Below, piece by piece: positions 892 through 33,073 of a DNA stretch of 64,000 bases (position 1 is the first letter of the stretch; each line of letters begins with the position of its first letter). The translations under genes were made by a program, and so were the position numbers. The notes below the pieces were generated by a model. The model was not told the origin of the DNA, made no database searches, and was given only the letters and a program-made list of their open reading frames with translations. The stretch is from Azolla caroliniana (lineage: Eukaryota; Plantae; Polypodiophyta): assembly GCA_043228905.1 (NCBI GenBank), contig JBHGNT010000005.1:13206001-13270000 (forward strand). Direction: 5' to 3'.

Positions 892-1348
892 TGTCAGGAA
901 CTCTATTAAGGCAGAGAAGGAATTAGTACTAAAAGAAGGATTAGTACTATTGTTGGGGAATAGTACTAAGACAGAGAAGGATTAGTACTATGAGAGGTGT
1001 CGAACTTTGAGAGAAGGAATGAGTGAGTGAGAGAGAGAGAGAGAGAGAGAGAGAATGATGATGCGAAAGATATATGTATTATATGACGGAAGATATACAA
1101 CAGTAGTTAGAAGGCTTAAGACTGGCGTTGAACCGATTTGGTTCGAACTAATGCCTTGCGCCTCCTTTTATAGTGTCTTCAGGAATACTCCTGAAGTTTC
1201 TAGAATGTTCCAGAGAAATCTGGAATATACATCAATTTCCTAATAAAACCTAAATCAAAATAATATCCTTCAAATTACAACTCATAACCTAATGGTAAAG
1301 TCTCGACCCGTGTAACAAAAGGTTATGGGTTCGAGTCTAGTTATGACA
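892..1348 (-). repeat. 3' LTR of element B
   Basis: Direct repeat of 4785-5241; adjacent to the PPT (minus strand ttttaaagggggggtag). Confidence 0.97.
1280..1348 (+). promoter_or_regulatory. tRNA-like A-box/B-box module at the U3 edge of chromovirus LTRs (also ~5173-5241, ~12630-12700, ~20185-20240)
   Basis: TAACCTAATGG (1285) and GGTTCGAGTC (1328); in B2, TAGTCTAATGG and GGTTCGA. Confidence 0.5.
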
Positions 1349-3538
1349 CTACCCCCCCTTTAAAACGACGAGTTTCACGAGTCGTTTTGGATTGAGGACC
1401 CGGTTTCTCGGGATATCGTCGATGGAAGTCTTCAAGTCCTCACGTATAGTATTGGTAATGTCGGAATCCACGGGCATGTCAAAGATCTGTGCTGCTTGCA
1501 GTCGTGCTGGACCCAAGATTACTTGCTTCTGGTTATCGAAAGCTGGCTCACCGGGACGTGGTGTTAGATACGAACGCCGTGATAATGCATCTGCCTTCCC
1601 TTGGTGCTTCCCCGGACGATATGTAATTTTGAAGTCGAAGCGTGTGAGGAAATGGGCCCACCGAGCTTGACGTCGATTCAGTACACGAGCATCTTGAAAG
1701 TAGGCAAGGTTCTTGTGGTCACTGAATACAGTGACCTGATGAGGAGATCCCTCCAGGAAATGCCTCCATTGCATAAAAGAATCAACTATTGCTAATAGCT
1801 CTTTATCATGAATTTCGTAGTTGATTTCGGCGGCGTCAAACTTACGGGAGTGGAAAGCCACAGGATGTAGCTTCTCGTCGTTACCCTGTTGTGACAGAAT
1901 GCTCCCCAATGCGAAATCCGATGCATCAGCTTCGATAATGAATGGTTTTTCCGGATCCACATGACCTAAAATTGGAGCTGATGTAAACGCCTTCTTAAGA
2001 CTCTCGAAAGCCATGTCCGTCTCTTTAGACCAAATGAATGATTGTCCCTTCCTGGTGAGCTGTGTGAGAGGCAGCACAATTTTTGAGTAATTTTGTATGA
2101 ACTTCCGGTAGAAATTTGCAAAGCCTAGGAAGCATTGCACATCCCGCACCGAACGCGGAGTGTGCCATTCTATCACCGTTTTGACCTTGGCTGGGTCCAT
2201 AGATATGCCTTCTGAGGAGATGACATAGCCGAGAAACTCCACTTGGTTGCACCCGAAACTACATTTCTCTAACTTTGCATACAGACCATGTTCTCGAAGT
2301 CGTTTTAGTACTAATAGTACATGAGAATCATGTTCTTCTTGGGTCTTTGAATAAACCAGTAGATCATCCAAATAGATGATCAAAAAATCATCCAAGAGGT
2401 CTCGAAATATATCATTCGCCATGTGCTGGAAGACTGCCGGCGCATTAGTGAGTCCGAACGGCATGACCGTATACTCGAAGTGCCCATATCTGGTGCGAAA
2501 CGCGGTCTTCCATTCATCTCCTGGTCGGATCCGTACGAGGTTATAGGCTCCTCGTAAGTCGATCTTCGTGAAGAACCTGGCACCGTTGATCCGTTCTAAA
2601 AGACTTGAGATAAGGGGAAGAGCATACCTATTTCTTACTGTGACCTTATTCAAGCCACGGTAATCTACAACGAGTCGAAGCGAGCCATCTTTTTTCTTGA
2701 CGAAGAAAATGGGTGCGCCGGCTGGAGATTTCGAATGCCGAATGAAACCGTTCTCCAAATTCTCCTCTATATAGGCTCGAAGGACTTCTAGCTCGGTTGG
2801 TGACAAATTGTAGATCGGCCCCCATGGCGGCTCTTTTCCCGGTTGTAAGTCGATGGCGCAGTCGTACGGCCGATGATGAGGAAGTGTGTTGGCTTGTACT
2901 TTATCGAACACATCAGCATACTGACGATACTTCTCGGGAAGTTGAACGGTGGACTCCTCTTTGGTGGTGCTGGAGGGTTGTACTGATATTGCAAAGAGAA
3001 ACATTTCCTCCTTGCGCCCTTCCTCACGCAACTGTCGTAGCGAAATGGTTGCAACCTTCTGGGTAGATCCTTGGGTTTGTCGCAACCGGATTTCCCTTGT
3101 CCTCCAATCTATGTCTGGGTCATGTAACTCGAACCATGGTAATCCTAAAACTATGGGATGTTCTGGAATACTAATAATATTAAATGATACTACACATGTT
3201 AAGTTATCTAGGACAATATTAACGGGTTCCAACTCTTCTATGATATTACCAGAAGCAATGGGACGACCATCAATGACTACTACTGAGGCTGGACATGGGA
3301 GCTTTCTGAGAGATATCTGATGAGCTCGGGCAAAATTCCTATCCATGAAGCAAGAATTAGCTCCGGAATCTAGAAGGGCTAAGGTATGTACTGGAGGGGT
3401 ACTTTTAGTACTAACTGCTACTTGGACTACGAACACATCACTAACTTGCTTAGAGGGAATGGAACCACTAATGGGCTGCACAGATCTAGGGCTGTCCAAC
3501 CAAACGGCTCCTATTTTGGCTGGACTTAGTCGTTTAAC
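1349..3538 (-). CDS. pol: Pol of element B (PR-RT-RNaseH, integrase deleted), probably made by -1 frameshift from gag
   Basis: ORF 1349..3499 with LLDSGA, KIDLRGAY, YLDD, EADASD, NRRQARW. The frame is -1 to gag and open across the gag stop. Confidence 0.9.
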   Translation of the reverse strand, partial: VKRLSPAKIGAVWLDSPRSVQPISGSIPSKQVSDVFVVQVAVSTKSTPPVHTLALLDSGANSCFMDRNFARAHQISLRKLPCPASVVVIDGRPIASGNIIEELEPVNIVLDNLTCVVSFNIISIPEHPIVLGLPWFELHDPDIDWRTREIRLRQTQGSTQKVATISLRQLREEGRKEEMFLFAISVQPSSTTKEESTVQLPEKYRQYADVFDKVQANTLPHHRPYDCAIDLQPGKEPPWGPIYNLSPTELEVLRAYIEENLENGFIRHSKSPAGAPIFFVKKKDGSLRLVVDYRGLNKVTVRNRYALPLISSLLERINGARFFTKIDLRGAYNLVRIRPGDEWKTAFRTRYGHFEYTVMPFGLTNAPAVFQHMANDIFRDLLDDFLIIYLDDLLVYSKTQEEHDSHVLLVLKRLREHGLYAKLEKCSFGCNQVEFLGYVISSEGISMDPAKVKTVIEWHTPRSVRDVQCFLGFANFYRKFIQNYSKIVLPLTQLTRKGQSFIWSKETDMAFESLKKAFTSAPILGHVDPEKPFIIEADASDFALGSILSQQGNDEKLHPVAFHSRKFDAAEINYEIHDKELLAIVDSFMQWRHFLEGSPHQVTVFSDHKNLAYFQDARVLNRRQARWAHFLTRFDFKITYRPGKHQGKADALSRRSYLTPRPGEPAFDNQKQVILGPARLQAAQIFDMPVDSDITNTIREDLKTSIDDIPRNRVLNPKRLVKLVVLKGG

Positions 3539-4695
3539 TCTTCTTCTAATTGGCTAAGGACATCAAATTTGTTTGCGAGATTCGGACTATTAGTACTATT
3601 AGGACTATTATGACTATGAGGATTATCAGAGATTCCTACTGACATAGACTCGGGTTTAGTATAGTCAGAACTAACAATGACTTGGTTTACCTGCCTTCTT
3701 GGTCTATGGGGACAGTTTATCGCGATATGCCCTGGTCCACCGCAATAAAGGCATAATCGGTTTGTTCGGCGTCGTTGCTTTTCCTCCTCCGATAGCGGCC
3801 CACGACGACGTGTAGTGTCAATTTCCATTGGAGTTGGAGTACTTACTGGAGGCGCATTATGTGACTCCCTTTGAAAAGGTTTCGCTACCATTGAGGCATA
3901 GGTAGGCTCGGATCTTGCCCTCGGCATCTGAAATTGTCGTTCCGAACGTCGCTCGAAGAGGCGGTTGTCACATCTGACCGCTCGACTGATTGCTTCTGTT
4001 AATGATTTTGGCTCTTCAGGGAAAGTCAAGAGTAAATCCTTGACATCGTTGCGTAGACCATAGCGGAACTGCTCCATCAATGCTTGATCATCCCAGGGGA
4101 TATCGGCGGCGAGTAGGCGGAAATCTGCAGCATATGCGGAGGCTGGACGGTCACCTTGGCGTAATCGCCGGATTTTGTTGATTGCAGTCCTTATGCTGTC
4201 AGTATCTCCAAAACATGCTTTAAACTCACTTATGAATTCTTCAAAATTATTTAGTACTGGAGATTCCTTTTCTAGTAGCGGAGCGAACCATGCTAATGCT
4301 GAGCCATTTAACAACGTGCCTACTAAACCCACTCGTGATGCATCGGTGGGATATCGGGACGGATGCATTTGAATAACTAACCGTACCTGGTTAAGAAACC
4401 CTCTAAACTGCGATCGCGTTCCATCGAACTTCGTGGGAAGGCCAATCTTGGGTTCTTTATGAATCCCTTGTGCTCCGTGCCCTTGTTGTTGCATTGCTAC
4501 GATGGTTGCTTCGAGTTGTTGCACGCGTAACGCAAGTTCCCCATGCTGTTGTTGCGTTTGCTGCTTTTCCAAGGAAATTTGCTGAAGATCCCCCAACAAG
4601 CGTTGATTTTCTTGTTCCAAAGCATGAAACTTCTCTTTCAAGCATTGAAATTCCGAGAAAACGGACTGATACTCTTCAGCGCTAACGGTGGCCAT
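3526..4695 (-). CDS. gag: Gag of element B (coiled-coil N-terminus, capsid, CCHC knuckle)
   Basis: 389-aa ORF with PTKFDG, LRQGDRPASAYAADF, GLRNDVKD, PTPMEID and CLYCGGPGHIAINC. Confidence 0.93.
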   Translation of the reverse strand: MATVSAEEYQSVFSEFQCLKEKFHALEQENQRLLGDLQQISLEKQQTQQQHGELALRVQQLEATIVAMQQQGHGAQGIHKEPKIGLPTKFDGTRSQFRGFLNQVRLVIQMHPSRYPTDASRVGLVGTLLNGSALAWFAPLLEKESPVLNNFEEFISEFKACFGDTDSIRTAINKIRRLRQGDRPASAYAADFRLLAADIPWDDQALMEQFRYGLRNDVKDLLLTFPEEPKSLTEAISRAVRCDNRLFERRSERQFQMPRARSEPTYASMVAKPFQRESHNAPPVSTPTPMEIDTTRRRGPLSEEEKQRRRTNRLCLYCGGPGHIAINCPHRPRRQVNQVIVSSDYTKPESMSVGISDNPHSHNSPNSTNSPNLANKFDVLSQLEEELND

Positions 4696-4784
4696 GGGAT
4701 GAAGGAAAAGGGAAATAAGAGACTAGTAGGAAAGGAGAGAGACAGAAGGAAGAGGGAGACTAGTAGGGAGAAATCGGTTCAAAC

Positions 4785-5241
4785 TGTCAGGAACTCTATT
4801 AAGGCAGAGAAGGAATTAGTACTAAAAGAAGGATTAGTACTATTGTTGGGGAATAGTACTAAGACAGAGAAGGATTAGTACTATGAGAGGTGTCGAACTT
4901 TGAGAGAAGGAATGAGTGAGTGAGAGAGAGAGAGAGAGAGAGAGAGAATGATGATGCGAAAGATATATGTATTATATGACGGAAGATATACAACAGTAGT
5001 TAGAAGGCTTAAGACTGGCGTTGAACCGATTTGGTTCGAACTAATGCCTTGCGCCTCCTTTTATAGTGTCTTCAGGAATACTCCTGAAGTTTCTAGAATG
5101 TTCCAGAGAAATCTGGAATATACATCAATTTCCTAATAAAACCTAAATCAAAATAATATCCTTCAAATTACAACTCATAACCTAATGGTAAAGTCTCGAC
5201 CCGTGTAACAAAAGGTTATGGGTTCGAGTCTAGTTATGACA
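4785..5241 (-). repeat. 5' LTR of element B, with TATAAAA at 5065-5059 on the minus strand
   Basis: Direct repeat of 892-1348; followed on the minus strand by a self-complementary PBS at 4782-4771. Confidence 0.97.
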
Positions 5242-5246
5242 GGTGG

Positions 5247-5776
5247 AAGTGCGGACGACGCACCTAGACGGCATGGCGCTGGGAGACGAGTGGGCGGAAA
5301 GCCACTATTCGAGACCACACTGGGCCCGAGCGACCACGGAAACCCCGGTGAAGATCGGCGATGTCCGGGAACCGGTGATAGCTTTGGTGGACCACGGATC
5401 GGAGATCAATTTGATGTCCATGGACTTCTATAAGAAGGGCAAATGGCCGATCAACACCAAGCACGGGTGGAAGATAAGGGCAGCAACGCGCGCCACCGAG
5501 GAACTGCACGGGGCTTGTCCGAATGTGCGAGTCAAGATTGGCGACGTCGAGATCGACCAGCACTTCTTCGTGCAGGAGACGTCTTCGCATCCGGTCATTC
5601 TAGGAGAGCCGTATATCACGGCGGCGCGAATGGAGACCAAAGTGCTGGACAATGGTTCGGCCTACGCGAGGGTCAAAAGCCAAGACGGGCGCCATTCGGT
5701 CCAGTTTCTGACGGTACGGCCGAACCACGAACGTAACCGCGATTCCCTCGGTTCCGAAAACCGAGAGGATTTTTAG
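5247..5776 (+). pseudogene. End of ORF1 of element A encoding the aspartic protease
   Basis: ALVDHGSEINLM ... VILGEPY retroviral-type protease motifs; ends in GAT TTT TAG. Confidence 0.85.
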
Positions 5777-8700
5777 AGAGGACTGCCAAGGCGTGGGGCC
5801 GCGACAGTCCGGATGCTCCGGAAAAACCCCACATCTGTACGATAAAACCGTGTACAATAGGTAGGAAATTTTGCTTCTCCGACAGCGGAGCATGTACGTT
5901 GGTCGGCATCGCCGGCCGAGAGAAAACAAAGACGGAGGGGAGACTTCGGGCGTGCGGAGTTCTCGGCCCTAACGAAGAAATCAACGGAGCCGTGGAGGCA
6001 GTCTCCTTCGACGACACCTTGGGAATGCTGGGGAGGGTAGTCGAAGAAGACCTTATCGAGGACCGGACGATACCGGTATGTTCCGTAGAAATGTACGAAG
6101 TCATCGCGGACTTCGGTCGAGGGCTCGAGTCGGAACGGGCGGCCCGAGTTAGCACCAAGTACAAGACGGTGGACCGGAAGGTGAGGCCAGTTGCGGCGCC
6201 CTTACCGGAGGGCAGTGAATCCCGGATTAAAGGGGTTGCATCGGACCCCAGCTTACGAGATCGGGCCTGCATAGGACACACCTTCACCAACGAGACGCTC
6301 CGCGAGCTGAAGATCGGTGGGGGCGGGTTCCTACTGCCGGCGGAGGAAGACCGGTTCCGGAGAATGCTCGGAAGGCACGGGAAAGCCTTCGCATTCTCGC
6401 CGGAGGAAATCGGGTGCGCGGACCCGACGATCGTAGAGCCGATGGTGATATTCACGGTACCTCATGTACCGTGGAATCTCAAGCCAATTTCGGTTCCGAG
6501 AGCTCACATCCCGAAGTTGATGGAGCTGTTGAAGCAGAAAGTTGATATGGGCATTCTCGAGCCGTCGAGCGCCCCGTATTCAAACCGCTGGTTTACCGTA
6601 CCAAAGGAAAACGGATCATTGCGCTTCATTCAGGACCTGCAACCGGTCAATAGGGTGACCATTCGGAACGCAGGGATCGGACCGACCATAGACGAGTTCG
6701 CGGAGGCCTTCGCCGGAAGGTCGATTTACTCGGTCGGTGATCTATACTCGGGGTACGACCAGTTCCAGCTAGCCGTGGAAAGCAGAGACATTACGACGAT
6801 GCGAACTCCCCTCGGCCTAGTGCGGATGTGTACGCTGCCGCAAGGAGGGACCAACTCGGTGGCCCACATGGTGAATGCGATGAACAAGGTGCTGAGGGAC
6901 TGCATCCCGGACATCATCATGCCGTTTCTAGACGACATCCCGATCAAGGGATGCCCGGTAGAAGAGAAGGACGAGACGGTCGGGCCGGACGGATGCCGGC
7001 GATTCGTGGTAACGCACATCGACGACTGCGAGAAGGTGCTGCAAAGGCTAGAGGATGCGAGGCTCACCTTCTCGGGGGAGAAGTCAGCCTTCGGGCAGTC
7101 GGAAATCATGGTGGTCGGACATTTATGTGGACCATATGGCCGGAGACCGTCTCCGGCAAAGATAGAAGCCATCTCCGCGATGAAGCCTGATTGCAGCTCG
7201 GTCATGGAAGTACGAAGATTCTTGGGGGCATGCGCCTTCTACCACATATGGATCCCGCATTACGCGCACGTCGCGGAGCCGCTGTACGGATTATTGAAGA
7301 AAGGGCGAAGATTCGAATGGATAGACAAGCACACGGAGTCGGTCCGGAAGCTGAAGGAGGCTCTTTCGGCAGCACCGGCGCTCTGAAAGGCCGTCTACAG
7401 GAAGGGCACCCCAGTGTACATAACGGTTGACACGAGTCCGACCGGAATCGGGTGGGTCGTCAGCCAAGAAGACGAGGACGGCAATCGGTTTCCGATCCGA
7501 TTCGGCGCGAAGGTCCTCAGCGAACGGCAGCGAGGATACGCCCAGGTTAAACGCGAACTCTGGGGTATCGTTTCGGCGGTGAAGGCCGACAAGGACTATC
7601 TGATCGGGACAGAGGTAATCATAGAGACGGATTGCATGCCGATTCTCGGCATGGTTTCCGGATGCGCGACGCCGGACCTGGCAATGCTCAGGTGGATAGC
7701 GTACATCAAGTCCCTGGACCCGGAAATACGACACATTTCCGGGAAAGACAACGCCATGGCCGACATGCTTTCAAGGGCGAGATTCGATGACGAGGGCGGC
7801 ATGGTTTCGGAGGACGAAGAGGTCGGCGTGGACTTCTTCGAGACTGCGTATGTAACAACCGACGGAACAAGCACTCCGGCGCTTAACGACTTCGACGCGA
7901 GCAAGTATGACGGGGAGTGGCTACAGATCGGTGGGTTTTTGAAGACAATGACGCCCGATGCGTCATGGACGAAGGACGAGGCCAACCGGATCCGGAAGAA
8001 AGCGTACCGGTTCTTTCTCCGGGATGGCTATCTATGGAAGCACCCGAAGAAGAGGGACGGCGCTCCGCTCCGGGTGGTGGCGATGAAGGAAGAACAGGAG
8101 GAGCTGCTGACGGCCTACCACGACAGCCCTTGGGCTGGACACCGTGGAACATGGGCTACGTTTGAGAAACTGAAGGGGAAGTATTGGTGGCCGGGGCAGT
8201 ACCGGGACGTGCATCGGTTCGTGACAACTTGCGAGAGCTGTCAGATGCACTCCATAGTCCGATATCGGGACGAGCTTCACCCCACGTACCCTCCGACCAT
8301 CCACTTCAAATGGATGATAGATCTGGTAACGATGCCAATGGGGGTAGGACAGATGCGGTACCTGGTCCTAGCGCGGGAGGATCTGACGAACCAGGTGGAA
8401 GGCCGGGCCCTTCCGAACAAAACGACCGCGGCCGTATGCCGGTTCCTAATCGAGGACGTGATATGCCGGTACGGGTGCGTCGGGAAGATCGTGGCTGACC
8501 GAGGGGAGTTGGACGCCGAAGAAGCCGCGGAGCTGTTCGACCGGCTGGGAGTCAAGCTCTCGCTCACCACTGCGTACAATCCGGAGGCGAATGGAAAGGT
8601 GGAGCGCGGACACGGACCGATCGTCAAGGCGTTGGTTCGGGCATGCGGAGGCCGAGTCGGTGACTGGCCGCGGCTGCTACCTTATGCTTTGTGGGCAGAC

Positions 8701-9255
8701 CGGACCACGCACAGTTCGGTAACCGGGTACATGCCGACGGAGCTCATGTTCGGCCAGAAGCCGATCATGCCGATGGAACGGACGATCTCCTCGTGGGCAA
8801 CGGTCGACTGGAGGGACGAGATGAGCCGGGAGGAGTTGTTGGCCGCGCGCATACGACAGCTCGAGCGGAGACCGGAGGACGTGGAACTGGCTGCGGAGAA
8901 GCTCCGGGTGGCGAGGAAAAAGAACAAAGCCAGGTTCGACCGAACGCACCGGCTCCGACCGAAGAAAATCGAAGAAGGTGACTGGGTGCTCGTCTACGAC
9001 AGCAGCCTCGACAACCAGCACCGAGCTACACGGAAGTTCGCACGAAGGTGGTTCGGGCCTTACGTGGTACGGAGCGCCAATGACAACGGGACATATCACC
9101 TGGCGGAACTCGACGGCACGAGAATGGCGATACCGGTTGCAGGGAAGCGGATCAAAGCGTTCAAGAAGCGACACGACGACGAGCCAGACCCGGCTCTCCT
9201 GGTCAGCAGTGACGAACGATCCGAAAACGAGGAAGAACCGACGGGCGAGGAATGA
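5767..9255 (+). pseudogene. pol: pol (RT-RNaseH-integrase) of element A in the -1 frame, with one nonsense codon at 7384-7386
   Basis: ORFs 5899..7386 and 7414..9255 are in the same frame, which is open back to 5761. TGA sits where the paralog has an Arg codon (CGG). Confidence 0.9.
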
Positions 9256-9326
9256 AGACGGGCCGGTTTTCTCCGTCCCAACTCTCTTGGCGAATACCGG
9301 AGGATGCGCGGTTAGGTGGGGGCGGA

Positions 9327-10103
9327 TGTCGTGAAGAAAACCGTCCATAAGCAGAATCGGCAGACCAAGGCGTGGGAACCGGTTCCTCACGCGCGCACGC
9401 TCCAAGTCGAACATAGAAGCGAGTTAGGAGGATAATCGGCAGGAACGGGCCCTAACACGAGTGGAGACAAAGACCGCGCGAACAGTCTTTTCGGTCGCGC
9501 GCGCGAGCTAAGGGACGGCACGAGTCGGCGGCGTAACTACGCGTATGCGTGAAGAACGGAGCGGATCCCTGTTCGAAAGGGACAGGGAATAAAGCTGACA
9601 GGACGGCCTGCTCGTCGGGCTATATAAGAGCAGGAAAGAGCTGTTGCAGGTATCTCGCGCGGAGAGGACGAAGTGCTGTCGGACCGTTTCTGGACGCTTC
9701 TCTCTCTCTGTTTCCTTCCTTCTTGAGCTCCATAGCTTTCTGTGCAGGGTTCCGAGGAGGCTCGCGCTGTTTCGAGGAACGCCCGAGTGCTTCCGGCAGC
9801 CCCTTTGTGCGTCGAAGTGAACAGGCATCGGCATCTGTTCGCCGGCCTGTTCGGTTGTAACCAACCTGTGCCCCGTCGAGGGTTGTAGTCGTGTTAGCCA
9901 TTTTTCTTAATACACATATTTAGTCATTCGCATCTGTCTGTGTCGGTGTCTGTTCGCGTCCACCGTGCTGAAGGGCCGCGTCCCTGTGTATCCCCGGCCC
10001 TGCGTAGCCGGTTCTCTCCCTTTCTCCTCCCTCGCTTGCTCTTTGGTTCGAGACCCCCGCGGTCCTGCCTCGTTTCCACACGCACTTGCGTAAAATCTCG
10101 ACA
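9327..10103 (+). repeat. 3' LTR of element A (777 bp)
   Basis: TGTCG..CGACA termini, follows the PPT, contains CTATATAAG; the 3' part is similar to the LTRs at 43206 and 49553. Confidence 0.9.
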
Positions 10104-11524: not shown

Positions 11525-14500
11525 CTATATATAGATTTCCTCTTCTAACTCACGATGCAGAAATGTTGTTTTTACATCCAATTGTTCAATCCCCAGATTC
11601 ATACATGCAGTTATGCTCAAAATAGTTTGGATGGATGTCCACTTTACTACTGGAGCAAATATCTCATCAAAATCGACACCCTTTTCCTGCTGAAAGCCCT
11701 TTACCACTATTCGGGCTTTATATCTAGGTGTACTACCAACTTCTCTAGTTTTCAACTTTGTAAAACCATTTGTTTCTGAGTGCATTCTCTCCCTTAGGTA
11801 GCTCCATCAACTCATAGGTGTGGTTCTCATCCAAGGAATCCATCTCATCTTGCATGGCACTATACCACTTCTCCTTGTACACATCTGCCATGGCTTTTTG
11901 ATAACATTCCGGCTCACCTTCATCAGTCAGTAGGACATATTGACTAGCTGGATACAGAGAGGATGGTTTCCATGGTTATCTTCTTCCTTCTACCGCCAAT
12001 TCAAGTTTAGTTGCTTCTGCCAGCTCATTATCTACCTCAGATTCATGTGCATCAGCCTCCTGTTGTGTGCCGACCAGCTCAGATATGTTGTTTGTGGGAT
12101 GACTATGTAGGAGTGGGGTCGGCTAGTGTCAAATCCATAACTGTCGCCGGCTGGGAAGAAGACGCTGATTTCTATTGTCTCTAGTCTTCAATCGTCTTGT
12201 CTTCCATGAATACAATATCATGGCTCACCACTTTCTTTTCAAGAAGATCCACAACTTATTGTTAGGAACAGTACTAAGACAGAGAAGTACTGTCAAGAAT
12301 AGTACTAAGACAAAGACAGAATTAGTACTAAAAAATGAGGATTAGTACTAAGGGAGGTGTAGAACTCTCGAGAGAAGGAAAGAGTGAGTGAGAGAGAGAG
12401 AGAGAATGATGATAACAAAAGATATCTATTATGTTAAGAGAATATACAATAGTCGCTAAAAGGCTTAAGACTGGCGTTGAACCGATTTGGTTCGAATTAA
12501 TGCCTTGTGCCTCCTTTTATAGTGGTCTCAGGAGTACTCCTGAACTTTCTAGAATGTTCCAAAGAAATTTGGAATATACATCCAATTTCTATAGTAAAAC
12601 TTAAATGAAAATAATATCCTTCGTATTACAACATATAGTCTAATGGTCAAGAGCTCGACCCATGTAACATAAGGTCATGGGTTTGAGTTTTGCCATATCA
12701 CGAGACTATCCCCCTTTTAAAATGACGAGTGTCACGAGCCGTTTTGGATTGAGGACCCGGTTTGTCTTGATATTGACTGTGAAAGTCTTCAAGATGAGCA
12801 CAAGCATTGGCCACATTCTCTATTGGTTCCCAAGTACGCTCGTTGGGACTATATCCTAGCCAATCGACTAAATAGTAGAGCTTGTTGCGAACAATCTTGG
12901 AATCGAGGATGGGGGCAACCTCGTACTAAGGTCCATCTTCAAGTTCGATCGAGGGTGGAGGTTGTTTAATACGACCTGGGATGATGCTGTCTTTATAAGG
13001 TTCGAGGAGAGAACTATGAAACACCGGACCTATCTGAAGTTGTGGAGGTAGATCGAGACGAAAAGTGACATCATTAATTTTTCCGATAATACGGAAAGGA
13101 CCTAATCACCGATAATCCAACTTCTCGCATGAGCGAGTAGTTTTGATGTGTCATCGTGGTAGCCATACCCGATCTCCAATGTTAAAACTGGATGGAAGAC
13201 GATGACGATCCACGCAAACCTTGTGTGTTTGTTGAGCTTGTTGTAGATGAGTAGATAAATCCCCTTGTATCTTGCATAACCACTCTAAACTATCCTCTCT
13301 AAAAGGATTTGTGGGTAACTCTGGGGTTTCAAATACACACCACCGGGGGTGATAGCCCGTATAAGCATAAAATGGTGTAACCTTTGTCGATGAGTGGACA
13401 GAGTTATTATATGAAAATTCGGCGAAGTGGAGAATATCGACCCAGTCATCTTGATGATAGCTTAGAAAGCACCGAAGATACTGCTCCAGCGTTTGATTTG
13501 TTTGTTCTGTTTGGCTGTCTGTTTGCGGGTGGTAGCTAGAGGAGAGGTTACAAGTGACCTTGAGCATTTTAAAGAGGTGCTTCCGGAATTTCGAGACGAA
13601 TTGGGGTCCACGGTTGCTAATGATACTATCGGGAAGGCCATGATGCCGACATACTTCACGCATGACAGTTTCGGTAGTTTCCTCACTAGAGATTTCCTTA
13701 GTACATGGCAGGAAATGGGCCATCTTTGTATATCGATCTACTACTATTAAGATCGCATCGAATCCCTTAGAGACCGGAAGATTTGTGATGAAATCTAGAG
13801 CAATGGATTGCCACGGCTTGATTGGAATTGGTAATGGTTCTAATAAAACATATGGATGATGCCTTGGCATTTTTGCTCTGCAACATGTATCACAAGTTCG
13901 AACAAAATCTTCGACAAATTGTCCCATATGGGGCCACCATAATGAATGTTGTACTAAATCTAATATTTTAGTACTACCAAAATGCCCAGATGTATATGTG
14001 TCATGACAGTTTTGGATTACTCTAAGGTGACAAGAACCATTAGGAACATACAAGATTTTCTTAAAGAATAGTAATCCATCATGACATTTGAATTGTCGAT
14101 AGTCCGTACCTGGTTGTTGCGACTGTGAACAAGATGCTCGAAAGGGATCAATTTGTGCTAGAATGGCTTGGGCGAAAGCATCTATCTTCAAGTCCTCACG
14201 TATGGTATCGGTAACGTGGGAATCCAAGGGCATACCGAAGACCTGCGTTGCTTGGAGTCATGTTGGTCCCATGATTACTTGCCTTTGGTTATCAAAAGTT
14301 GGCTCGCCAGGACGCGGTGCTAGATACGAACATCGTGATAATGCATCAGCCTTCCCTTGTTGCTTCCCCGGACGATATGTAATTTTGAAGTCAAAACGAG
14401 TGAGGAATTGGGCCCACCGAGCTTGACGTCGATTTAACACACGAGCATTCTGAAAGTAGGCAAGGTTTTTGTGATCACTGAATACGGCGACTTGATGAGA

Positions 14501-18644: not shown

Positions 18645-20064
18645 AACACGTTTGTGTTCACAAGTGGAAGGATAAGGATAAGGAATATTCCGTCTGATTT
18701 TGGGGCTTTTTTGGCCATTTCACAAAACACCTTGATACCAATATCACATGTTCTCAAAAACTTGATGAAAAAGCTAAAATTTTCACCGTTTGGACATGAA
18801 AAGTTCGTGTCGAAAAGTTGACTTTTTGACATGAATTCAATACAATGTATCGAGTTCACGTTTAAAGTTTTTTTGGGGATTTTTTTTAAAAAAAATTTGG
18901 TTTTTTTTCTATTTATTTTGGGTCTTTTTGGATTTTTTCTTTTTTTAAGTTTTAAGTGGTGAAAAAACCAGAGTTTTCATCACAAGTCGATACAATGTAT
19001 CGAATTCATGTTTAAAGTTATTTTTTTCCCAAAAAACAATTTTAAAAACAAATAAATAAATAAATAACAATTTGAAAAAATTACTTTAAACATGAACTAG
19101 ATACATTGTACTGAATTGTGATGAAAAATCTAGTTTTATTCAATTTTTATTTTTTTTGTTTTATTTTATATATTTTTTATTTTTTTAAATTCGGGAAAAA
19201 AAGACTTCGAACATGAATTTGATACGTTGTATGGAATTGATATGAAGACTCTATTTTTTACATCAACTCGATACAATGTATGGAGTTCATGTTTAGAAAT
19301 CTTCTTTTTTTTCAAATAAAAGAGGTTTACAGTTTACATGAACTCGAATTGTACTAAAATCTTTGTTTTGACAAGAGTAAAAGATGAATATCGATGTTGT
19401 AAAGAAGTATGTTGCACAACAAGATACCTTATGGTGAACATGTGCTTCCTTGATTAACAAAAAACCATTAATAATTGTGTTGATGGTAATTGAACCTTGC
19501 AAATGCAGAAGAAGAGGAGAGCATTGTGGATACCTTCATAACTATGTGATATGTTCAAATTGATATATTAATGTTTACATCTAAAATTGACAGTTTATGA
19601 ATATCATCTACATTTTAGGAGTTATGGATTTATTAAAATTGTTTATGAATATTGTATACATTTCTTGAGTTGTGAATTTATGCATGTTAATGAGCACTAA
19701 ATTTATAGATGATGGCATTAAGGATTACAATGTTCCCTCTTATACTTAAAACAATAGATGTAACTTCCACTTTTGGAACCTACATCTTCTCAAGATAGTT
19801 AACTTCCATTGGGATTTTCTTTAAGTTAACTACATTTCATATCTTCAACCCATCAACGTTTAAACATTTATTGAAAACTATGCAATTTTAGAAATTATCA
19901 TTTTGAAACTTGTTAAATCTCCAAAAATTAGCAAAATTTACATGCTATTTAAAACATGTGATACTGGTGTATCAAGTTTCTGAAAATCGCCTAAATTCGC
20001 AATATTATAAAAGGAATCTATAAGTGGAATGCGTGATCCTTCCACTTGTGAACGCGAACGTGAT
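18645..20064. mobile_element. Non-autonomous DNA transposon (MITE-like, 1420 bp)
   Basis: ~29-bp imperfect TIRs (aacacgtttgtgttcacaagtggaaggat / atccttccacttgtgaacgcgaacgtgat), CTCC duplicated on both sides, AT-rich non-coding interior; interrupts the B2 LTR. Confidence 0.85.
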
Positions 20065-22389
20065 CTCCTTTTATAGTGTTCCCAAGAGTACTCCTTAAGT
20101 TTCTAGAATGTTCCAAAGAAATCTGGAATATACATCAATTTTCTATAGTAAAATTTAAATGAAAATAATATTTTTCGTATTACAACATATAGTCTAATGG
20201 TCAAGAGCTCGACCCATGTAACATAAGGTTATGGGTTCGACCGAACTCATCTCTTGAGTACCCCAAGAATATGCATGGCTTGGACTTCATGTCCAGCTTT
20301 GACCTTTGATCATTTGCAACATGCATATATGTCGAGCATTCGAACACTCTCAAGTGCTAGTAAGAGAAGCACTCTCAAGTGCTAGTAAGAGAAGTTTCTT
20401 CTTGTCCACACCCTCTGTGGAACATCACCATTTAGAGACACTAAGGGGAACCCGTTTATAAGATAAACAACCATCAACATTGCCACAACCCAATACAATT
20501 TCGGCAATTTTGCAAGTGACAACATGCTTCATACCCTTTCCATTATGGTTCAGTTCATCCTCTCTGCTAGACCATTCAATTCATGTGTCTTCAGCACTGT
20601 GTAGTCAAGTTTGATACCTTGAGTCTTACAATACATCTCAAACTGGATCTTGTACTCACTACCGTTATCTGTCTGAACAGCCTTCAACTTTTGTCCAGAT
20701 TCTTTTTTAGCCCTAGCATGGAATTGTTTAAAGTCTGACATCACCTGGTCTTTAGTCTTCAATACGAAAGCCCAGAACTTTCTGTTATAGCCATCAATGA
20801 ATGCCACAAAGTATTGTCCACCACGATGTGACATTGCATCCACATAACATACATATGCGTGAACCAATTCTAAAGCAAGCTCTCTTCTCATTGGAGGTCT
20901 AGAATGGAACGTGACCCTATTTTCTTACCAACCAAGCAATCAACACATTTGTCCAGATCCATACCTTTCACTCCTGGGAGGAGATCCTTTCCAGCAAGCA
21001 TATTGTTGAGAGACAAGCTCAACATCGGCCGGTTCGGCTGAAGAAGTCGAGGACCGGATCGGTTGGGACCGATCGGTTAGGCCGAGTGCGTAAACCGGGA
21101 GCGCGTGTCAGCCGCGACGTTGTGTTTGACGAGTCCGCGTCCTGGTACCTGCCCCCGACTACGAACCTCGACTCCCATCCGAGCTCTGACGATGAGGTCA
21201 GCGAGGCCGAGATGCCTCTGGATGAGCCCGAAATCGATACCCACGAGGAGAGTCTGATTTCACTCCAGTTAAGTGGACCGATTGGACGACTGAGTCGGTA
21301 CGACCAGTCCGATGAAGAGCCAGCGAGTGGTGGAGACTCGTCCGTGCATTCCCCGCGCAGGAAGCCGAGGAGACGGCTTACGCGCAAAGAGAAAGGGAAG
21401 AAGAAGGTGTCGGATTTCGGCACGGAAAGGAACGAGTCAGACCGACGCGAGTCCAACTCCGAGGGAACCGGTGACAGGTCTTTAAAGATGAAGACCGCGT
21501 CGACCGAGAACGCCTCGACATCGGCTAATGTGAGATTACGCCGATCTACTCGCCAAAAGAACCCAGTTGTGTGGTTCGGATACAACGAGTACATGGCGCA
21601 TCATTATGCGTACATGACCCGTGTAACGGAAGTGCGTGAGTCGGAGAGCTACGCAGAAGCGGCTAAAGACGCGAATTGGCATGCCGCGATGGAGGAAGAG
21701 ATGCACGCATTGGCAGAGAACGAGACCTGGGACCTAGTTGACACACCAAGAGGGGTAAAACCGATCGGGTGTAGGTGGGTGTACAAGGTCAAGTACAACA
21801 CCGATGGCTCGGTCAACCGGTACAAGGCTCGGCTAGTGGCAAAGGGCTACGCGCAGAAACACGGCATCGACTACGATGAGACGTTTGCGCTGGTCGCGAA
21901 AATGACGACCGTCCGTGTTTTGCTCGTAGTAGCTGCGGTGAAGGGGTGGCACTTACATCAGATGGATGTAAAGAATGTGTTCCTGCAAGGTGACCTTGAG
22001 GAACAGATGTACATGGTACAGCCCCCCGGATTTCACTCTGGAAGGAACTCCTCGGCAGTATGCCGACTGAAGAAGTCCCTTTACGGACTGAAGCAAGCCC
22101 CGCATGCCTGGAACGCGAAGATCACGCAACAACTGCGTCGGATGGGCTTCGTCACGTCAAAATCAAACTCTTCCCTGTTCATCCGGAAAGGTCGACTCGG
22201 ACCGGTTAGTATTTTACTATATGTTGATGACTTGGTCATCACCGGCGCCAACCTACGTGAAATCGACCGTGTGAAGCTCCAACTTGCGGCATCGTTCGAC
22301 ATGAAGGACCTGGGGGACCTTCATTACTTCCTCAGGATCGAAGTGATCCGTACCCCCGAAGGCATATTGATCAGCCAACATCATTACGT

Positions 22390-25300
22390 TGTCGTAGTGT
22401 ATTTTGTACACTACGTGAAAAACGTATATAGTATTAGATTCAATAAAAAATGAAGAAATAGAAGAAAATAGCAAAATAAATGGAACATGCATAGGGCAAG
22501 ATTCGAACCTTGCACCTCCATGTTAATAATGTAATGTCTTACCATTACACTAGCATTTCATTAGTGTTAAAGCATAGATGTCCCACATAGAAAGGTAAAT
22601 TCACGCTAGGATAAACATTAGAAAAACGCATAACAAAAGAAAAAGCTACACATACACATCTAGCGTGCATGATAAAAAACGCACAAGTTAGAAAAAAGCA
22701 TGATCACTTTAGATAAAGCATATAGTCTATCTATAGGAAAAGCATGGGGTCTATAGTTAGAGAAAAAGCATGGATTACTAAGACTTCCTCATCACTACAT
22801 AAGGATGGGAAGCACAATGTAATTGTGTGTGAAAAATATTTGGAAACTAGATATGTTTCTAAAAAACACCAGTTAATAAACTATACTTGTGGGATTCACG
22901 AGAATTCTATATCATTCTCTTTCAACCGAAGTTTATATTCTTATATTCATATTGATTAATCTAATACAATACACTCGTGGGATTCACGAGTTTGCTATAA
23001 CTCTTTCTTACAACATATTTCTATTCTTATTAGCCTTAAAACTCTCCTCTTCCTAGTCCAAAACCCCAGCGGTTCCCACCCGACTCACGAAACGATCTGG
23101 CGCCGAAAGGCACGACACAAGTTGGTGAACCCGACGTGAAGACGGGCTGGAAGGAGACCGACTCAATCGAAACCGAACAACCGATTCCGATTCGGCCGAA
23201 TACGAATCCGATCGGAAGCCGATCAAACCGAAAGTCGATCGGACGAGAGCGATCCGGAAAAAAGTCAAGGTTGATGAAGACAAGAAAGAGGCCAGTAAAA
23301 GACACTACCACGAATGACAAGGGCCAAGAATATGACGAGAGAGAACAAAGAATATGGTGGATCGGATGGCGACAATGGTTCGGGTGGAAAGAATGGGTCT
23401 ATTCAAATGGAGAGACAAAGTCAACATAACAAGAGAAGTCGAGGGTACTACGAGCCGGCAACGAAACCAATCGGGTAGAGACCGGACGGAGGAGACTAAC
23501 AAACACCAACAACTTCGGCACATACCGGAGGATGTGCGGGTTTGGAGGGGGTGAGTGTCGTAGTGTATTTTGTACACTACGTGAAAAACGTATATAGTAT
23601 TAGATTAAATAAAAAATGAAGAAATAGAAGAAAATAGAAAAATAAATGGAACATGCATAGGGCAAGATTCGAACCTTGCACCTCCATGTTAATAATGTAA
23701 TGTCTTACCATTACACTAGCATTTCATTAGTGTTAAAGCATAGATGTCCCACATAGAAAGGTAAATTCACGCTAGGATAAACATTAGAAAAACGCATAAC
23801 AAAAGAAAAAGCTACACATACACATCTAGCGTGCATGATAAAAAACGCACAAGTTAGAAAAAAGCATGATCACTTTAGATAAAGCATATAGTCTATCTAT
23901 AGGAAAAGCATGGGGTCTATAGTTAGAGAAAAAGCATGGATTACTAAGACTTCCTCATCACTATATAAGGATGGGAAGCACAATGTAATTGTGTGTGAAA
24001 AATATTTGGAAACTAGATATGTTTCTAAAAAACACCAATTAATAAACTATACTCGTGGGATTCACGAGAATTCTATATCATTCTCTTTCAACCGAAGTTT
24101 ATATTCTTATATTCATATTGATTAATCTAATACAATACACTCGTGGGATTCACGAGTTTGCTATAACTCTTTCTTACAACATATTTCTATTCTTATTAGC
24201 CTTAAAACTCTCCTCTTCCTAGTCCAAAACCCCAGCGGTTCCCACCCGACTCACGAAACGATCTGGCGCCGAAAGGCACGACACAAGTTGGTGAACCCGA
24301 CGTGAAGACGGGCTGGAAGGAGACCGACTCAATCGAAACCGAACAACCGATTCCGATTCGGCCGAATACGAATCCGATCGGAAGCCGATCAAACCGAAAG
24401 TCGATCGGACGAGAGCGATCCGGAAAAAAGTCAAGGTTGATGAAGACAAGAAAGAGGCCAGTAAAAGACACTACCACGAATGACAAGGGCCAAGAATATG
24501 ACGAGAGAGAACAAAGAATATGGTGGATCGGATGGCGACAATGGTTCGGGTGGAAAGAATGGGTCTATTCAAATGGAGAGACAAAGTCAACATAACAAGA
24601 GAAGTCGAGGGTACTACGAGCCGGCAACGAAACCAATCGGGTAGAGACCGGACGGAGGAGACTAACAAACACCAACAACTTCGGCACATACCGGAGGATG
24701 TGCGGGTTTGGAGGGGGTGAGTGTCGTAGTGTATTTTGTACACTACGTGAAAAACGTATATAGTATTAGATTAAATAAAAAATGAAGAAATAGAAGAAAA
24801 TAGAAAAATAAATGGAACATGCATAGGGCAAGATTCGAACCTTGCACCTCCATGTTAATAATGTAATGTCTTACCATTACACTAGCATTTCATTAGTGTT
24901 AAAGCATAGATGTCCCACATAGAAAGGTAAATTCACGCTAGGATAAACATTAGAAAAACGCATAACAAAAGAAAAAGCTACACATACACATCTAGCGTGC
25001 ATGATAAAAAACGCACAAGTTAGAAAAAAGCATGATCACTTTAGATAAAGCATATAGTCTATCTATAGGAAAAGCATGGGGTCTATAGTTAGAGAAAAAG
25101 CATGGATTACTAAGACTTCCTCATCACTATATAAGGATGGGAAGCACAATGTAATTGTGTGTGAAAAATATTTGGAAACTAGATATGTTTCTAAAAAACA
25201 CCAATTAATAAACTATACTCGTGGGATTCACGAGAATTCTATATCATTCTCTTTCAACCGAAGTTTATATTCTTATATTCATATTGATTAATCTAATACA

Positions 25301-27781
25301 ATACACTCGTGGGATTCACGAGTTTGCTATAACTCTTTCTTACAACATATTTCTATTCTTATTAGCCTTAAAACTCTCCTCTTCCTAGTCCAAAACCCCA
25401 GCGGTTCCCACCCGACTCACGAAACGATCTGGCGCCGAAAGGCACGACACAAGTTGGTGAACCCGACGTGAAGACGGGCTGGAAGGAGACCGACTCAATC
25501 GAAACCGAACAACCGATTCCGATTCGGCCGAATACGAATCCGATCGGAAGCCGATCAAACCGAAAGTCGATCGGACGAGAGCGATCCGGAAAAAAGTCAA
25601 GGTTGATGAAGACAAGAAAGAGGCCAGTAAAAGACACTACCACGAATGACAAGGGCCAAGAATATGACGAGAGAGAACAAAGAATATGGTGGATCGGATG
25701 GCGACAATGGTTCGGGTGGAAAGAATGGGTCTATTCAAATGGAGAGACAAAGTCAACATAACAAGAGAAGTCGAGGGTACTACGAGCCGGCAACGAAACC
25801 AATCGGGTAGAGACCGGACGGAGGAGACTAACAAACACCAACAACTTCGGCACATACCGGAGGATGTGCGGGTTTGGAGGGGGTGAGTGTCGTAGTGTAT
25901 TTTGTACACTACGTGAAAAACGTATATAGTATTAGATTAAATAAAAAATGAAGAAATAGAAGAAAATAGCAAAATAAATGGAACATGCATAGGGCAAGAT
26001 TCGAACCTTGCACCTCCATGTTAATAATGTAATGTCTTACCATTACACTAGCATTTCATTAGTGTTAAAGCATAGATGTCCCACATAGAAAGGTAAATTC
26101 ACGCTAGGATAAACATTAGAAAAACGCATAACAAAAGAAAAAGCTACACATACACATCTAGCGTGCATGATAAAAAACGCACAAGTTAGAAAAAAGCATG
26201 ATCACTTTAGATAAAGCATATAGTCTATCTATAGGAAAAGCATGGGGTCTATAGTTAGAGAAAAAGCATGGATTACTAAGACTTCCTCATCACTATATAA
26301 GGATGGGAAGCACAATGTAATTGTGTGTGAAAAATATTTGGAAACTAGATATGTTTCTAAAAAACACCAATTAATAAACTATACTCGTGGGATTCACGAG
26401 AATTCTATATCATTCTCTTTCAACCGAAGTTTATATTCTTATATTCATATTGATTAATCTAATACAATACACTCGTGGGATTCACGAGTTTGCTATAACT
26501 CTTTCTTACAACATATTTCTATTCTTATTAGCCTTAAAACTCTCCTCTTCCTAGTCCAAAACCCCAGCGGTTCCCACCCGACTCACGAAACGATCTGGCG
26601 CCGAAAGGCACGACACAAGTTGGTGAACCCGACGTGAAGACGGGCTGGAAGGAGACCGACTCAATCGAAACCGAACAACCGATTCCGATTCGGCCGAATA
26701 CGAATCCGATCGGAAGCCGATCAAACCGAAAGTCGATCGGACGAGAGCGATCCGGAAAAAAGTCAAGGTTGATGAAGACAAGAAAGAGGCCAGTAAAAGA
26801 CACTACCACGAATGACAAGGGCCAAGAATATGACGAGAGAGAACAAAGAATATGGTGGATCGGATGGCGACAATGGTTCGGGTGGAAAGAATGGGTCTAT
26901 TCAAATGGAGAGACAAAGTCAACATAACAAGAGAAGTCGAGGGTACTACGAGCCGGCAACGAAACCAATCGGGTAGAGACCGGACGGAGGAGACTAACAA
27001 ACACCAACAACTTCGGCACATACCGGAGGATGTGCGGGTTTGGAGGGGGTGAGTGTCGTAGTGTATTTTGTACACTACGTGAAAAACGTATATAGTATTA
27101 GATTAAATAAAAAATGAAGAAATAGAAGAAAATAGCAAAATAAATGGAACATGCATAGGGCAAGATTCGAACCTTGCACCTCCATGTTAATAATGTAATG
27201 TCTTACCATTACACTAGCATTTCATTAGTGTTAAAGCATAGATGTCCCACATAGAAAGGTAAATTCACGCTAGGATAAACATTAGAAAAACGCATAACAA
27301 AAGAAAAAGCTACACATACACATCTAGCGTGCATGATAAAAAACGCACAAGTTAGAAAAAAGCATGATCACTTTAGATAAAGCATATAGTCTATCTATAG
27401 GAAAAGCATGGGGTCTATAGTTAGAGAAAAAGCATGGATTACTAAGACTTCCTCATCACTACATAAGGATGGGAAGCACAATGTAATTGTGTGTGAAAAA
27501 TATTTGGAAACTAGATATGTTTCTAAAAAACACCAATTAATAAACTATACTCGTGGGATTCACGAGAATTCTATATCATTCTCTTTCAACCGAAGTTTAT
27601 ATTCTTATATTCATATTGATTAATCTAATACAATACACTCGTGGGATTCACGAGTTTGCTATAACTCTTTCTTACAACATATTTATATTCTTATTAGCCT
27701 TAAAACTCTCCTCTTCCTAGTCCAAAACCCCAGCGGTTCCCACCCGACTCAAGAAACGATCTGGCGCCGAAAGGCACGACA
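22390..27781 (+). mobile_element. Tandem array of a non-coding TRIM-like LTR element: 5 LTRs (728 bp; starting 22390, 23556, 24722, 25888, 27054) and 4 internal domains (438 bp), period 1166 bp
   Basis: TGTCG..CGACA termini; 4-bp TSD ACGT (22386-22389 / 27782-27785), whose removal restores the host HYVLSML; PBS TGGTGAACCCGACGTGAA after each of the first four LTRs; PPT ggagggggtgag before each following LTR. Confidence 0.95.
22473..22560 (-). promoter_or_regulatory. tRNA-like Pol III type-2 promoter module (A box, B box, T-run) in the TRIM LTR; repeated at +1166, +2332, +3498 and +4664
   Basis: Minus strand TAGTGTAATGG (22552-22542), then GGTTCGAATC (22509-22500) inside a GCAAG/CTTGC stem, then TTTT downstream. 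Confidence 0.6.
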
Positions 27782-30745: not shown

Positions 30746-30994
30746 CTAATCTTTCTTCCATCGCCCCCCCGCCCCCCGCCCCCCGCCCCCCACCCTCTTT
30801 CTCTCTCTCTCTTTCTGTGTGTTTTCCTCCCGTGGGGGCAATGGAAAGAGACAAGATCAAGAATATATACTGCTGCTCCTGTACTGGTCAGTACTAGTAT
30901 GTATGTATTGTGGTAGTACTGACCGCAAAGGTGTGCAGCAGTGAAGAAGGCCAGACTTCTAGAGACACAGAGGGAGAGGGAGAGGGGAGCAGTA

Positions 30995-33041
30995 ATGCAG
31001 GTGGGCACGGACAGTTATGCCGCCGCCGCTCCCCCGCCCTACCTGCTGGAGGAGCCACCTTCTCGCTCCTCCTTCCCATCCAGCAAGCCCAAGCCCAAGC
31101 AGCAGCATGAGGCGGGAAATGAGCAATCCAGCGTGCATTGTGAAAGTAAGAATGGAGACCTGATTCTCCGTGACGTGGTGGGGGGGGTGGGCGTTGGAAT
31201 CCAGAAACATGAGAGCCTCGCAACAGTTTCCCCCTCCTCCGCCTCGTCTTTTCCCACCGACGATAAGAAGCTACAATACACGCTCCGCAGCAACCCAAAG
31301 CGTAGCCGCCGCTTCTTTGATCCTGATTACACTCTGGAGCTGGCTTCAGCCACTGGTGTTTCAATGTTGTCTGGCGGCGGCAGTGGAGGAGGAGGAGGAG
31401 GAGGGTCGGCCTCACCCACCAGCAGGAACGTATCATCTCCATCCCCATTGGCCCCCCAGCAGCAGCAGGAGGCTAGCATCATCATCCATTTGGATCATCG
31501 CTCTTCTTCCTTCCTCAACAACAACAACAACAACAGCAGCAACGGCAAATGCACCGATCTGATATCAGCTTCAGGTAATCATATATTTAGCCAAAACGCT
31601 CATAATCATCATCATCATCATCTCAGTTCTGTGTCTATCGTGGAGACTAGTGGTGTCACATCATCAAATCCATTGGCGGCTCCTATAACCCCTGCCCCTG
31701 TCTCTGCCTCAACCACCACCTCCCCCGCAGTGCAGACAGCAGCATCTGCAACTTTCAAGAAACCAAATTCTCTCTTCTCTGAGAAAGCCAGGGCATGCAC
31801 TGAATGCGGGAAACAGTTCCCTTCTTGGAAAGCTCTGTTCGGCCACATGCGCTGCCACCCGGAGCGACAATGGCGTGGCATCCAGCCGCCCGCCTCCTTG
31901 AGCATCCAGAAATTACAGAAGATACCCTCCTCAGATAATAATTCCACCACTGTCTTAAACAATGTTCCAAGCGTTGTTGGGATCCAGCGTCCCACACGCC
32001 CCGGCCACCAATCTACAAAATCAAACCGCCGCCGCCGACCCACCACAACAGCTACCAACAGTAGCTACCACCACAGCCCCTCCACCACCGTGCCTGCCGT
32101 TGCCTCTTATGTTAATTGGGATTCTGATTCGGATAACAGTGGCGGCGCCCATGACCATGCTGCCACGGCCCAACAGCTAGCGTCTATGCAGGACAGTGAC
32201 ACAGAAAGCATTGAAGCTGCATATATTAGTGGGAGAGAGCCAGTCAACGAAGATTATGCAAACCAGAAGGCTGGAGGTGGCAGTGCCATCAGAATAGGGG
32301 AACCTCAGTGGCGGCAGAGCTTTCATGCATCAGACTTCGATCTCAATCTGTCTTCTGATCAGTCAGCCGAGTGTATCCCTATTCATTCTAAGGAACATAA
32401 GCATAGTACTGATCCAGATCCGCAGAGCTATCTGGATGAGCGGGACATGGCCGATTGCTTGGTTATGTTGGCTTTTGCTGGTGCAAAAGGTGAGGTGGAG
32501 ATAGAGGCCCGTGCTCCACCGCTGTTGGAGTCGGACCATAGTTCGTCTGATCAGAAAGGGGACAAAGGAAGGGCTGAGCGGCTGGATGCTGTGGCAGGAA
32601 TTCTTGAGTATTCTAGCCAGTACTCATCGGCAGGTGGAAGAGGAGGTGACAGCACTGCCTGTGGAGTCGAAGTGATGGCACCTCAGAGGAAGATGATGAA
32701 AAGGAAGAAGAAGTTGACGATGATGAGCGATGGCAATCATAACAATAAGAAGTATATGGATCAGAAGAGCTTCCTTTTCTTGGCCAAGTACAGTAGCAGT
32801 ACATTGGCAGATCAAACGTCGTGCATGAAGAAGGAGGGGGAGGGTAGTAGGATTACAGGGACTGGCGCAGGCAGCAGCATGACTTGGGCGGGGATTACTG
32901 AGGGCAGCAGGATCGCCAAGTTCCAATGTAGCACTTGCAAGAAAACGTTCCGGTCTCACCAAGCATTGGGCGGGCACAGGGCGAGCCATAAGAGGGTGAA
33001 AGGATGCTTCGCCAGAACCATCATTGAAGGAGGAGAGTCAG

Positions 33042-33073
<32 letters not shown>

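Follow-up and report, generated by a model that had tools for sequence, protein, structure and literature searches.

The window, a stretch of 64,000 nt from Azolla caroliniana (assembly GCA_043228905.1, contig JBHGNT010000005.1, positions 13,206,001 to 13,270,000), contains near its start a young chromovirus copy, termed B1 (892-5241), that is nested in a Phygy-like Gypsy element (1-891 and 5242-9391). B1 has a total length of 4,350 bp and codes for gag (3526-4722) and pol (1349-3553), both on the minus strand. Its 3' LTR (892-1348, minus strand, 457 bp, U3 beginning at 1348) is 100% identical to its 5' LTR (4785-5241, minus strand), and the element is flanked by the target site duplication (TSD) GGTGG at 887-891 and 5242-5246. 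The pol ORF encodes protease, reverse transcriptase (RT) and RNase H. Compared with a 99% identical relative, B1 lacks about 1.4 kb, corresponding to the integrase and chromodomain part, with LTRs identical and the TSD present; among relatives of B1, integrase adjoins the polypurine tract (PPT) in 29 of the 30 nearest junction loci. The PPT, together with three bases up to the LTR, is located at 1349-1361 (minus strand). Within the LTR, the TATA box of the Pol II promoter is found at 1166-1172 (minus strand; 5059-5065 in the 5' LTR), and an array of alternating GAA/TTC units, which we take to be heat-shock-element-like, at 1193-1215 inside U3.

B1 has no tRNA-type primer binding site (PBS). 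Twelve nucleotides near the predicted RNA start are complementary to the sequence just inside the 5' LTR: the predicted RNA 5' end (5021-5032, minus strand, 33 nt past the start of the TATA box) would act as a self-primer by forming a 12-bp duplex with the PBS at 4771-4782 (minus strand), which needs no tRNA match. This predicted arrangement is the Tcn1 design. Mosses and club-mosses have Tcn1 chromoviruses for which self-priming has been predicted (PMC6317226), and Tcn1 combines such a PBS with a chromodomain integrase (PMC6317226, PMC2864245). The chromodomain is present in the lineage of B1, as chromodomain loci share its PPT/LTR design and align with the pol ends of the B lineage. The Tcn1-type label is given by features, the pol-end tree containing copies from this genome and no reference Tcn1 elements.

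A further chromovirus copy, B2, lies at a distance from B1 in the same window; its 5' LTR is split near the TATA box by a 1.4-kb insertion with terminal inverted repeats (18645-20064). A third carrier of the module described below is a tandem TRIM array (22390-27781) of five LTRs of 728 bp with a period of 1166 and an ACGT duplication, whose LTR family includes coding members (L199, L202). The PBS of the TRIM is of the tRNA type, its TSD measures 4 bp (ACGT), and coding relatives with the same LTR start exist. A tRNA-type PBS and an NCGN target preference are described for Phygy (PMC6317226, PMC2864245); the label Phygy-like is a tentative one, given for the NCGN-type TSD and the coding relatives. 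RT/RNase H of the chromovirus and Phygy-like lineages are 27.6% identical, and their PBS and TSD types differ, confirming them as the two distant lineages that the preliminary description had named as unrelated carriers.

The module consists of an A box of the type of tRNA positions 8-19, TAACCTAATGG, beginning at 1285 (1285-1295, plus strand), and a B box, GGTTCGAGTC, beginning at 1328 (1328-1337, plus strand), 43 nt from start to start and with the B box 21 nt from the LTR end. The pair is contained in the last 64 bp of the 457-bp LTR. Since the minus strand encodes gag and pol and the PPT abuts position 1348, the module is antisense to the element and located at the start of U3, as had been described, with the same 43-nt spacing as in the TRIM. 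The identical pair at 5178 and 5221 (5178-5230, plus strand) in the 5' LTR faces outward into flanking DNA. B2 likewise carries the pair in both LTRs, but the spacing is 44 nt and not the 43 nt given for it before; its 3' LTR module (12636-12689, plus strand) has the B-box CpG changed to TG, and the module of its 5' LTR lies at 20190-20240 (plus strand), the LTR being cut just past the B-box core. Each of the five LTRs in the TRIM array has an antisense pair within U3, on the minus strand and again spaced by 43 nt, which is located about 110-163 nt inside the LTR (22500-22552, repeated at 23718, 24884, 26050 and 27216).

With a matrix trained on the tRNAs found in this assembly, a set that is incomplete and includes organellar-type genes, the B1 module scores 24.8 bits at 43 nt. 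A and B boxes at tRNA-like spacing, as in a type 2 Pol III promoter or TFIIIC site, are thus present in B1. The modules are not functional tRNA genes: a cloverleaf with intact stems is absent. A tRNA gene at the module was excluded, as ARAGORN reports none in the window and the T-stem is eroded; a search of window positions 1-30000 against Rfam gave no match at E<=5.

A/B pairs are strongly enriched over chance. In 120 position-picked 10-kb stretches (1.2 Mb), 47 pairs reach at least 20 bits, compared to 1-4 in each of five shuffles. The spacing is specific too: the bin of 41-48 nt contains 46 pairs, whereas any one of the seven others contains 0-6. Most clusters of strong pairs are located near LTR starts in antisense orientation; the remainder are tRNA pseudogenes or belong to a free repeat. 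Enrichment, strand and proximity to the U3 start are as the preliminary description had anticipated. Across the genome, LTR-end/PPT-type sites number 4,337 (chance expectation about 307), and 2,427 of these have an exact B box within 32 nt; the reversed-pattern control yields none.

The distribution among chromoviruses was surveyed at junctions defined without reference to the motif, 30 by PPT pattern and 30 by chromodomain, of which 28 have a junction (L261 and L268 have none under the rule). These replace initial surveys, in which anchoring on integrase gave few PPTs and a strict PPT pattern gave 10 junctions, three of them non-chromoviral. Antisense pairs of at least 10 bits are found at 16 of the 30 PPT-defined and 6 of the 28 chromodomain-defined junctions; in neither set is there one in sense orientation, upstream, or in the 200 nt that follow. 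The low figure of 6 arises because one young family (L243) supplies 20 of the 28 chromodomain loci. Most of its copies score about 4 bits (range -0.6 to 9.4): they retain the B box, at 16 nt from the LTR end and inside an 8-bp inverted repeat at the extreme end of the LTR, and the A box is degenerate or oddly spaced. Several copies have intact pol ORFs near 1,200 aa. This natural B-only variant favours a TFIIIC site over an obligatory transcript. B-box-only sites of yeasts are known as ETC/COC sites, which this family with its degenerate A box resembles.

For comparison across families, one natural copy per family was taken, giving 22 copies (13 from the motif-blind loci, 9 from earlier scans; L211, a pattern match without LTR relatives, was not counted as a family). 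A B box of at least 7 bits is present in 20 of the 22 (11 of the 13 of motif-blind origin) versus 2.7% of shuffles. The TGGT core of an A box is found 28-46 nt upstream in 19 of the 22, versus 8 of 146 control windows. Carriers occur on both deep branches of the pol-end tree (11 rows: 10 of the 22 family copies and B2), with integrase identity down to 53-60%. The boxes are kept across families, and the module is a clade-wide chromovirus trait, broader than the "second family" of the preliminary description.

In the Phygy-like lineage, an antisense pair of at least 15 bits lies within 300 nt at 19 of 30 junctions, with none in sense orientation in the first 300 nt. Five more junctions have an antisense pair within 400 nt, behind repeat arrays (24 of 30 in total). 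In some Phygy-like LTRs there are at least two antisense modules and, farther inside, an additional one in sense orientation (L111, L175, L145, L177, L186, L293, L318). No module was found in the Gypsy-A and Copia LTRs of the window, which have amplified without it, nor at the Copia junctions of the sample.

Conservation in the 22 family copies is confined to the boxes (231 pairwise comparisons). Invariant B-box columns are 0.91 identical, a value inflated because the representatives were chosen after viewing and anchored on the best matrix score, compared to 0.48 for the variable columns; the B box nevertheless exceeds the shuffle rate by far and is not a chance find of this anchoring. The spacer (0.52; shuffled 0.48) and the upstream DNA (0.57; shuffled 0.53) are close to the shuffle level. 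Between the two clades, the invariant B-box columns are 0.87 identical, followed by 0.54 and 0.55 for the other two segments. In the contigs of four other runs, differences are listed at 12 places, none of them in the B box or in invariant bases of the A box.

The tRNA fold, in contrast, is eroded. The outer T-stem positions 51-63, 50-64 and 49-65 form Watson-Crick pairs in 3, 1 and 6 of the 22 family copies, versus 36, 27 and 34 of 38 host tRNAs; pairs 53-61 and 52-62 are possible in 22 and 21 of the 22. Across family copies, the B box lies anywhere between 16 and 74 nt from the LTR end, so that an integrase attachment (att) site was discarded as an explanation. A conserved hairpin was likewise discarded, no fold being common to the families, and the module is not needed as a primer, the element having both a self-priming PBS and a normal PPT. 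Being near-palindromic, the B box scores on the sense strand as well in 14 of the 22 copies. It is therefore the A box that defines the orientation of the module, and binding of the palindrome by another factor is conceivable. Taken together, boxes that are kept while spacer, flanks and T-stem drift, with no common fold and a variable distance to the end, are what one would expect if selection in replicating lineages acted on a DNA element.

Copies that have been inserted show a different behavior. In inserted B2 copies, the B-box CpG has decayed at a rate of 0.43, compared to 0.35 and 0.22 at other CpGs (23 of 30 loci, the seven unanchored ones being left out; 0.43 is biased upward, as the query carried TG). 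The B-box CpG thus decays like other CpGs after insertion and gives no sign of host-level conservation; methylation may block binding at inserted modules.

The reading that we favor, although we place it at slightly below even chances, is that the antisense A/B pair at the outer edge of the LTR binds host TFIIIC and would thereby keep the Pol II promoter of the element open. From the LTR edge inward, B1 presents the B box, the A box, an AT-rich segment, the heat-shock-like array, the TATA box and the RNA start. TFIIIC is known to bind A/B boxes and to load TFIIIB on AT-rich upstream DNA (PMC7990762). In the LTR, TFIIIC would occupy the B box, and in copies with a good A box it would place TFIIIB in the AT-rich segment beside the enhancer. 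Heat-shock-element-like arrays are found in 15 of the 22 chromovirus family copies versus 11% of shuffles, which suggests heat-responsive promoters. The bound module could then act as a tDNA-like barrier or a nucleosome-poor patch between the promoter and flanking heterochromatin, into which chromodomain integrases would tend to insert; for the moss chromovirus RLG1, the chromodomain has been suggested to target heterochromatin (PMC7466625). The backward orientation would send any Pol III outward, away from the Pol II start, and selection would act on replicating element lineages, U3 being copied into both new LTRs.

The barrier role itself we infer by analogy with yeast tDNAs, not with plants; tDNA and TFIIIC barriers are established in human too. 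In yeast, they require intact A/B boxes to act against silencing (PMC7990762). Several observations count against shielding of the promoter: the young family is B-only, Gypsy-A and Copia have amplified without a module, inserted copies decay, and some Phygy-like LTRs have extra sense modules. The module bears on the question of how chromoviruses remain transcribable after integration into heterochromatin. As the box is kept clade-wide beside enhancer and TATA box, with natural variants (A and B, B only, none), the question could be addressed by one point mutation. The exact B boxes at 3' LTR-type junctions, at least 2,427 in number, would rival the tRNA genes of the host as targets of TFIIIC.

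In an unlikely alternative, the module works as a Pol III promoter and yields a short antisense RNA, spanning the start of U3, the PPT and the end of pol, that would feed siRNA or bind genomic RNA and so limit or time the activity of the element. In B1, the first T4 run downstream of the module (1385-1388, plus strand) marks the predicted end of a Pol III RNA of about 107 nt, which would cover these regions. Full A and B pairs at tRNA spacing and AT-rich upstream DNA (median 79% AT) are consistent with such a transcript, as are the T4 runs that 17 of 22 family copies have at 61-179 nt from the predicted start and the use of a homologous head by a free SINE-like repeat. The terminator position, however, is not conserved, being 344-362 nt away in 2 of the 22 copies and missing in 3, and the A box is degenerate in a young and abundant family. 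Moreover, self-silencing would have to profit the element in order to persist in so many lineages.

We consider it improbable that the conserved bases serve RNA structure, such as a hairpin or T-loop motif formed in the genomic RNA immediately 3' of the PPT, or that a protein other than TFIIIC binds the near-palindromic core. Many copies do fold stably around the B box, B1 with z-scores of -2.2 on the module strand and -3.3 on the element strand, and the spacer pairs with the B-box arm in several families; the two inner T-stem pairs that can form in nearly all copies also fit such a role. However, the pairing partners differ by family, z ranges from +0.9 to -4.8, and a separate A-box core at tRNA spacing is left unexplained.

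Still less probable is a neutral relic, that is, tRNA or SINE heads captured in U3 once or several times and carried as passengers. The decay of the B-box CpG in inserted copies, the existence of other LTR families without the module and the one module type in common with a free repeat would agree with it. It is largely refuted by the box-invariant bases, which are 0.87-0.91 identical while spacer and flanks are near shuffle level, and the box survives large indels between B box and LTR end. Very improbable is a role of the modules as landing pads that attract Ty3-like integration to a set position upstream of the A box; Ty3 itself targets Pol III start sites (PMC6673722). Among the 95 modules with relatives (from 118 found), a small sample, no peak is seen: 16 lose homology within 150 nt upstream, scattered from -2 to -137, and several of these are repeat-unit ends or tRNA pseudogenes.

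The putative TFIIIC site at the LTR edge can be set against several known systems. The closest is Helenus (TRIMp3), in which tRNA-derived LTR sequence is conserved mainly at boxes A and B and capture from a SINE has been proposed (Kojima 2024, PMC10886601). The Azolla modules resemble it in having tRNA-derived A/B boxes in an LTR and no functional tRNA. Helenus is a non-coding TRIM, whereas B1 is a coding element; the TRIM array of the window does fit the short, non-coding feature. The boxes of Helenus are proposed to transcribe the element, and those of Helenus-1_SMo lie on the PBS-to-PPT strand (PMC10886601). In B1, B2 and the TRIM, in contrast, the boxes are antisense at or in U3, and B1 has its own TATA box and Pol II promoter. 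The same source states that "not a few" Repbase LTRs hold tRNA-like parts, of which only TRIMs under 1000 bp were followed (PMC10886601). Cassandra and Ajax also have an internal Pol III promoter in their LTRs, but of type 1 (5S-derived) and producing element RNA (PMC10886601); the present modules are of type 2 (A/B) and face away from the element. Yeast tDNA and TFIIIC barriers share with the proposed role that A/B boxes act on chromatin apart from tRNA synthesis (PMC7990762). They are host loci at fixed domain borders, demonstrated by mutation and ChIP, whereas the plant sites are mobile candidates that number in the thousands.

No plant transposon case of a tDNA/TFIIIC barrier was found in the literature searched. 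The available text of PMC6317226 and PMC2864245 makes no mention of an A/B module for Tcn1 or Phygy, and "polymerase III" occurs zero times in that of PMC6317226. Nor did the literature searched describe antisense A/B boxes for the LTRs of Tcn1 or Phygy; subscription papers, Repbase entries and supplements (PMC6317226, PMC7466625) could hold such a description. While tRNA-derived boxes in LTRs are known from Helenus, antisense A/B boxes at the U3 edge of coding LTR elements, with the function proposed above, would be new.

As to their origin, the modules were likely captured from tRNA or SINE heads. Outside the boxes, the modules of the chromovirus and Phygy-like lineages show no significant similarity (P 0.10-0.24), so that independent capture is possible; common ancestry was considered for a suggestive match just past the B box and dropped, as the match is not significant (P=0.10). 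Scores of the candidate parent tRNAs are nearly tied within the incomplete tRNA set, which includes organellar-type genes. A possible intermediate is a dispersed repeat of 200 bp, set in CT microsatellites with unique flanks, that has two facing tRNA-like heads (L271-L290, e.g. L141:2330-2535). It has a SINE-like layout with about 1,810 rough candidates, and free copies are 89-98% alike. One of its heads shares 73-85% identity with the module carried by one subclade of chromoviruses, other than that of B1. Since this module is common to the subclade and the free repeat and has the look of a tRNA or SINE head, modules may have been exchanged through such repeats. Of the convergence claimed in the preliminary description, the presence of modules in two distant lineages is supported; independent origin is supported neither way, given the similarity values above and the sharing with the free repeat, which allows exchange.

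In its widest form, the proposal would be that tRNA-type TFIIIC sites were recruited more than once, as outward-facing insulators, by autonomous Pol II retrotransposons from two distant lineages of Ty3/gypsy, which would seed thousands of mobile tDNA-like boundaries through plant heterochromatin and trade promoter heads with a SINE-like family. We regard this as speculative and rather doubtful as a whole.

Three minor observations were made in the course of the analysis. An ORF of 1,399 aa with C2H2 zinc fingers is located amid retrotransposons at 30923-35122 of the window. The first genome pass of the tRNA model gave about 58,700 rough candidates, a number possibly inflated by LTR modules, and tRNA annotation may be affected. 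Locus L196 contains clusters of degenerate tRNA-like gene copies of two types.
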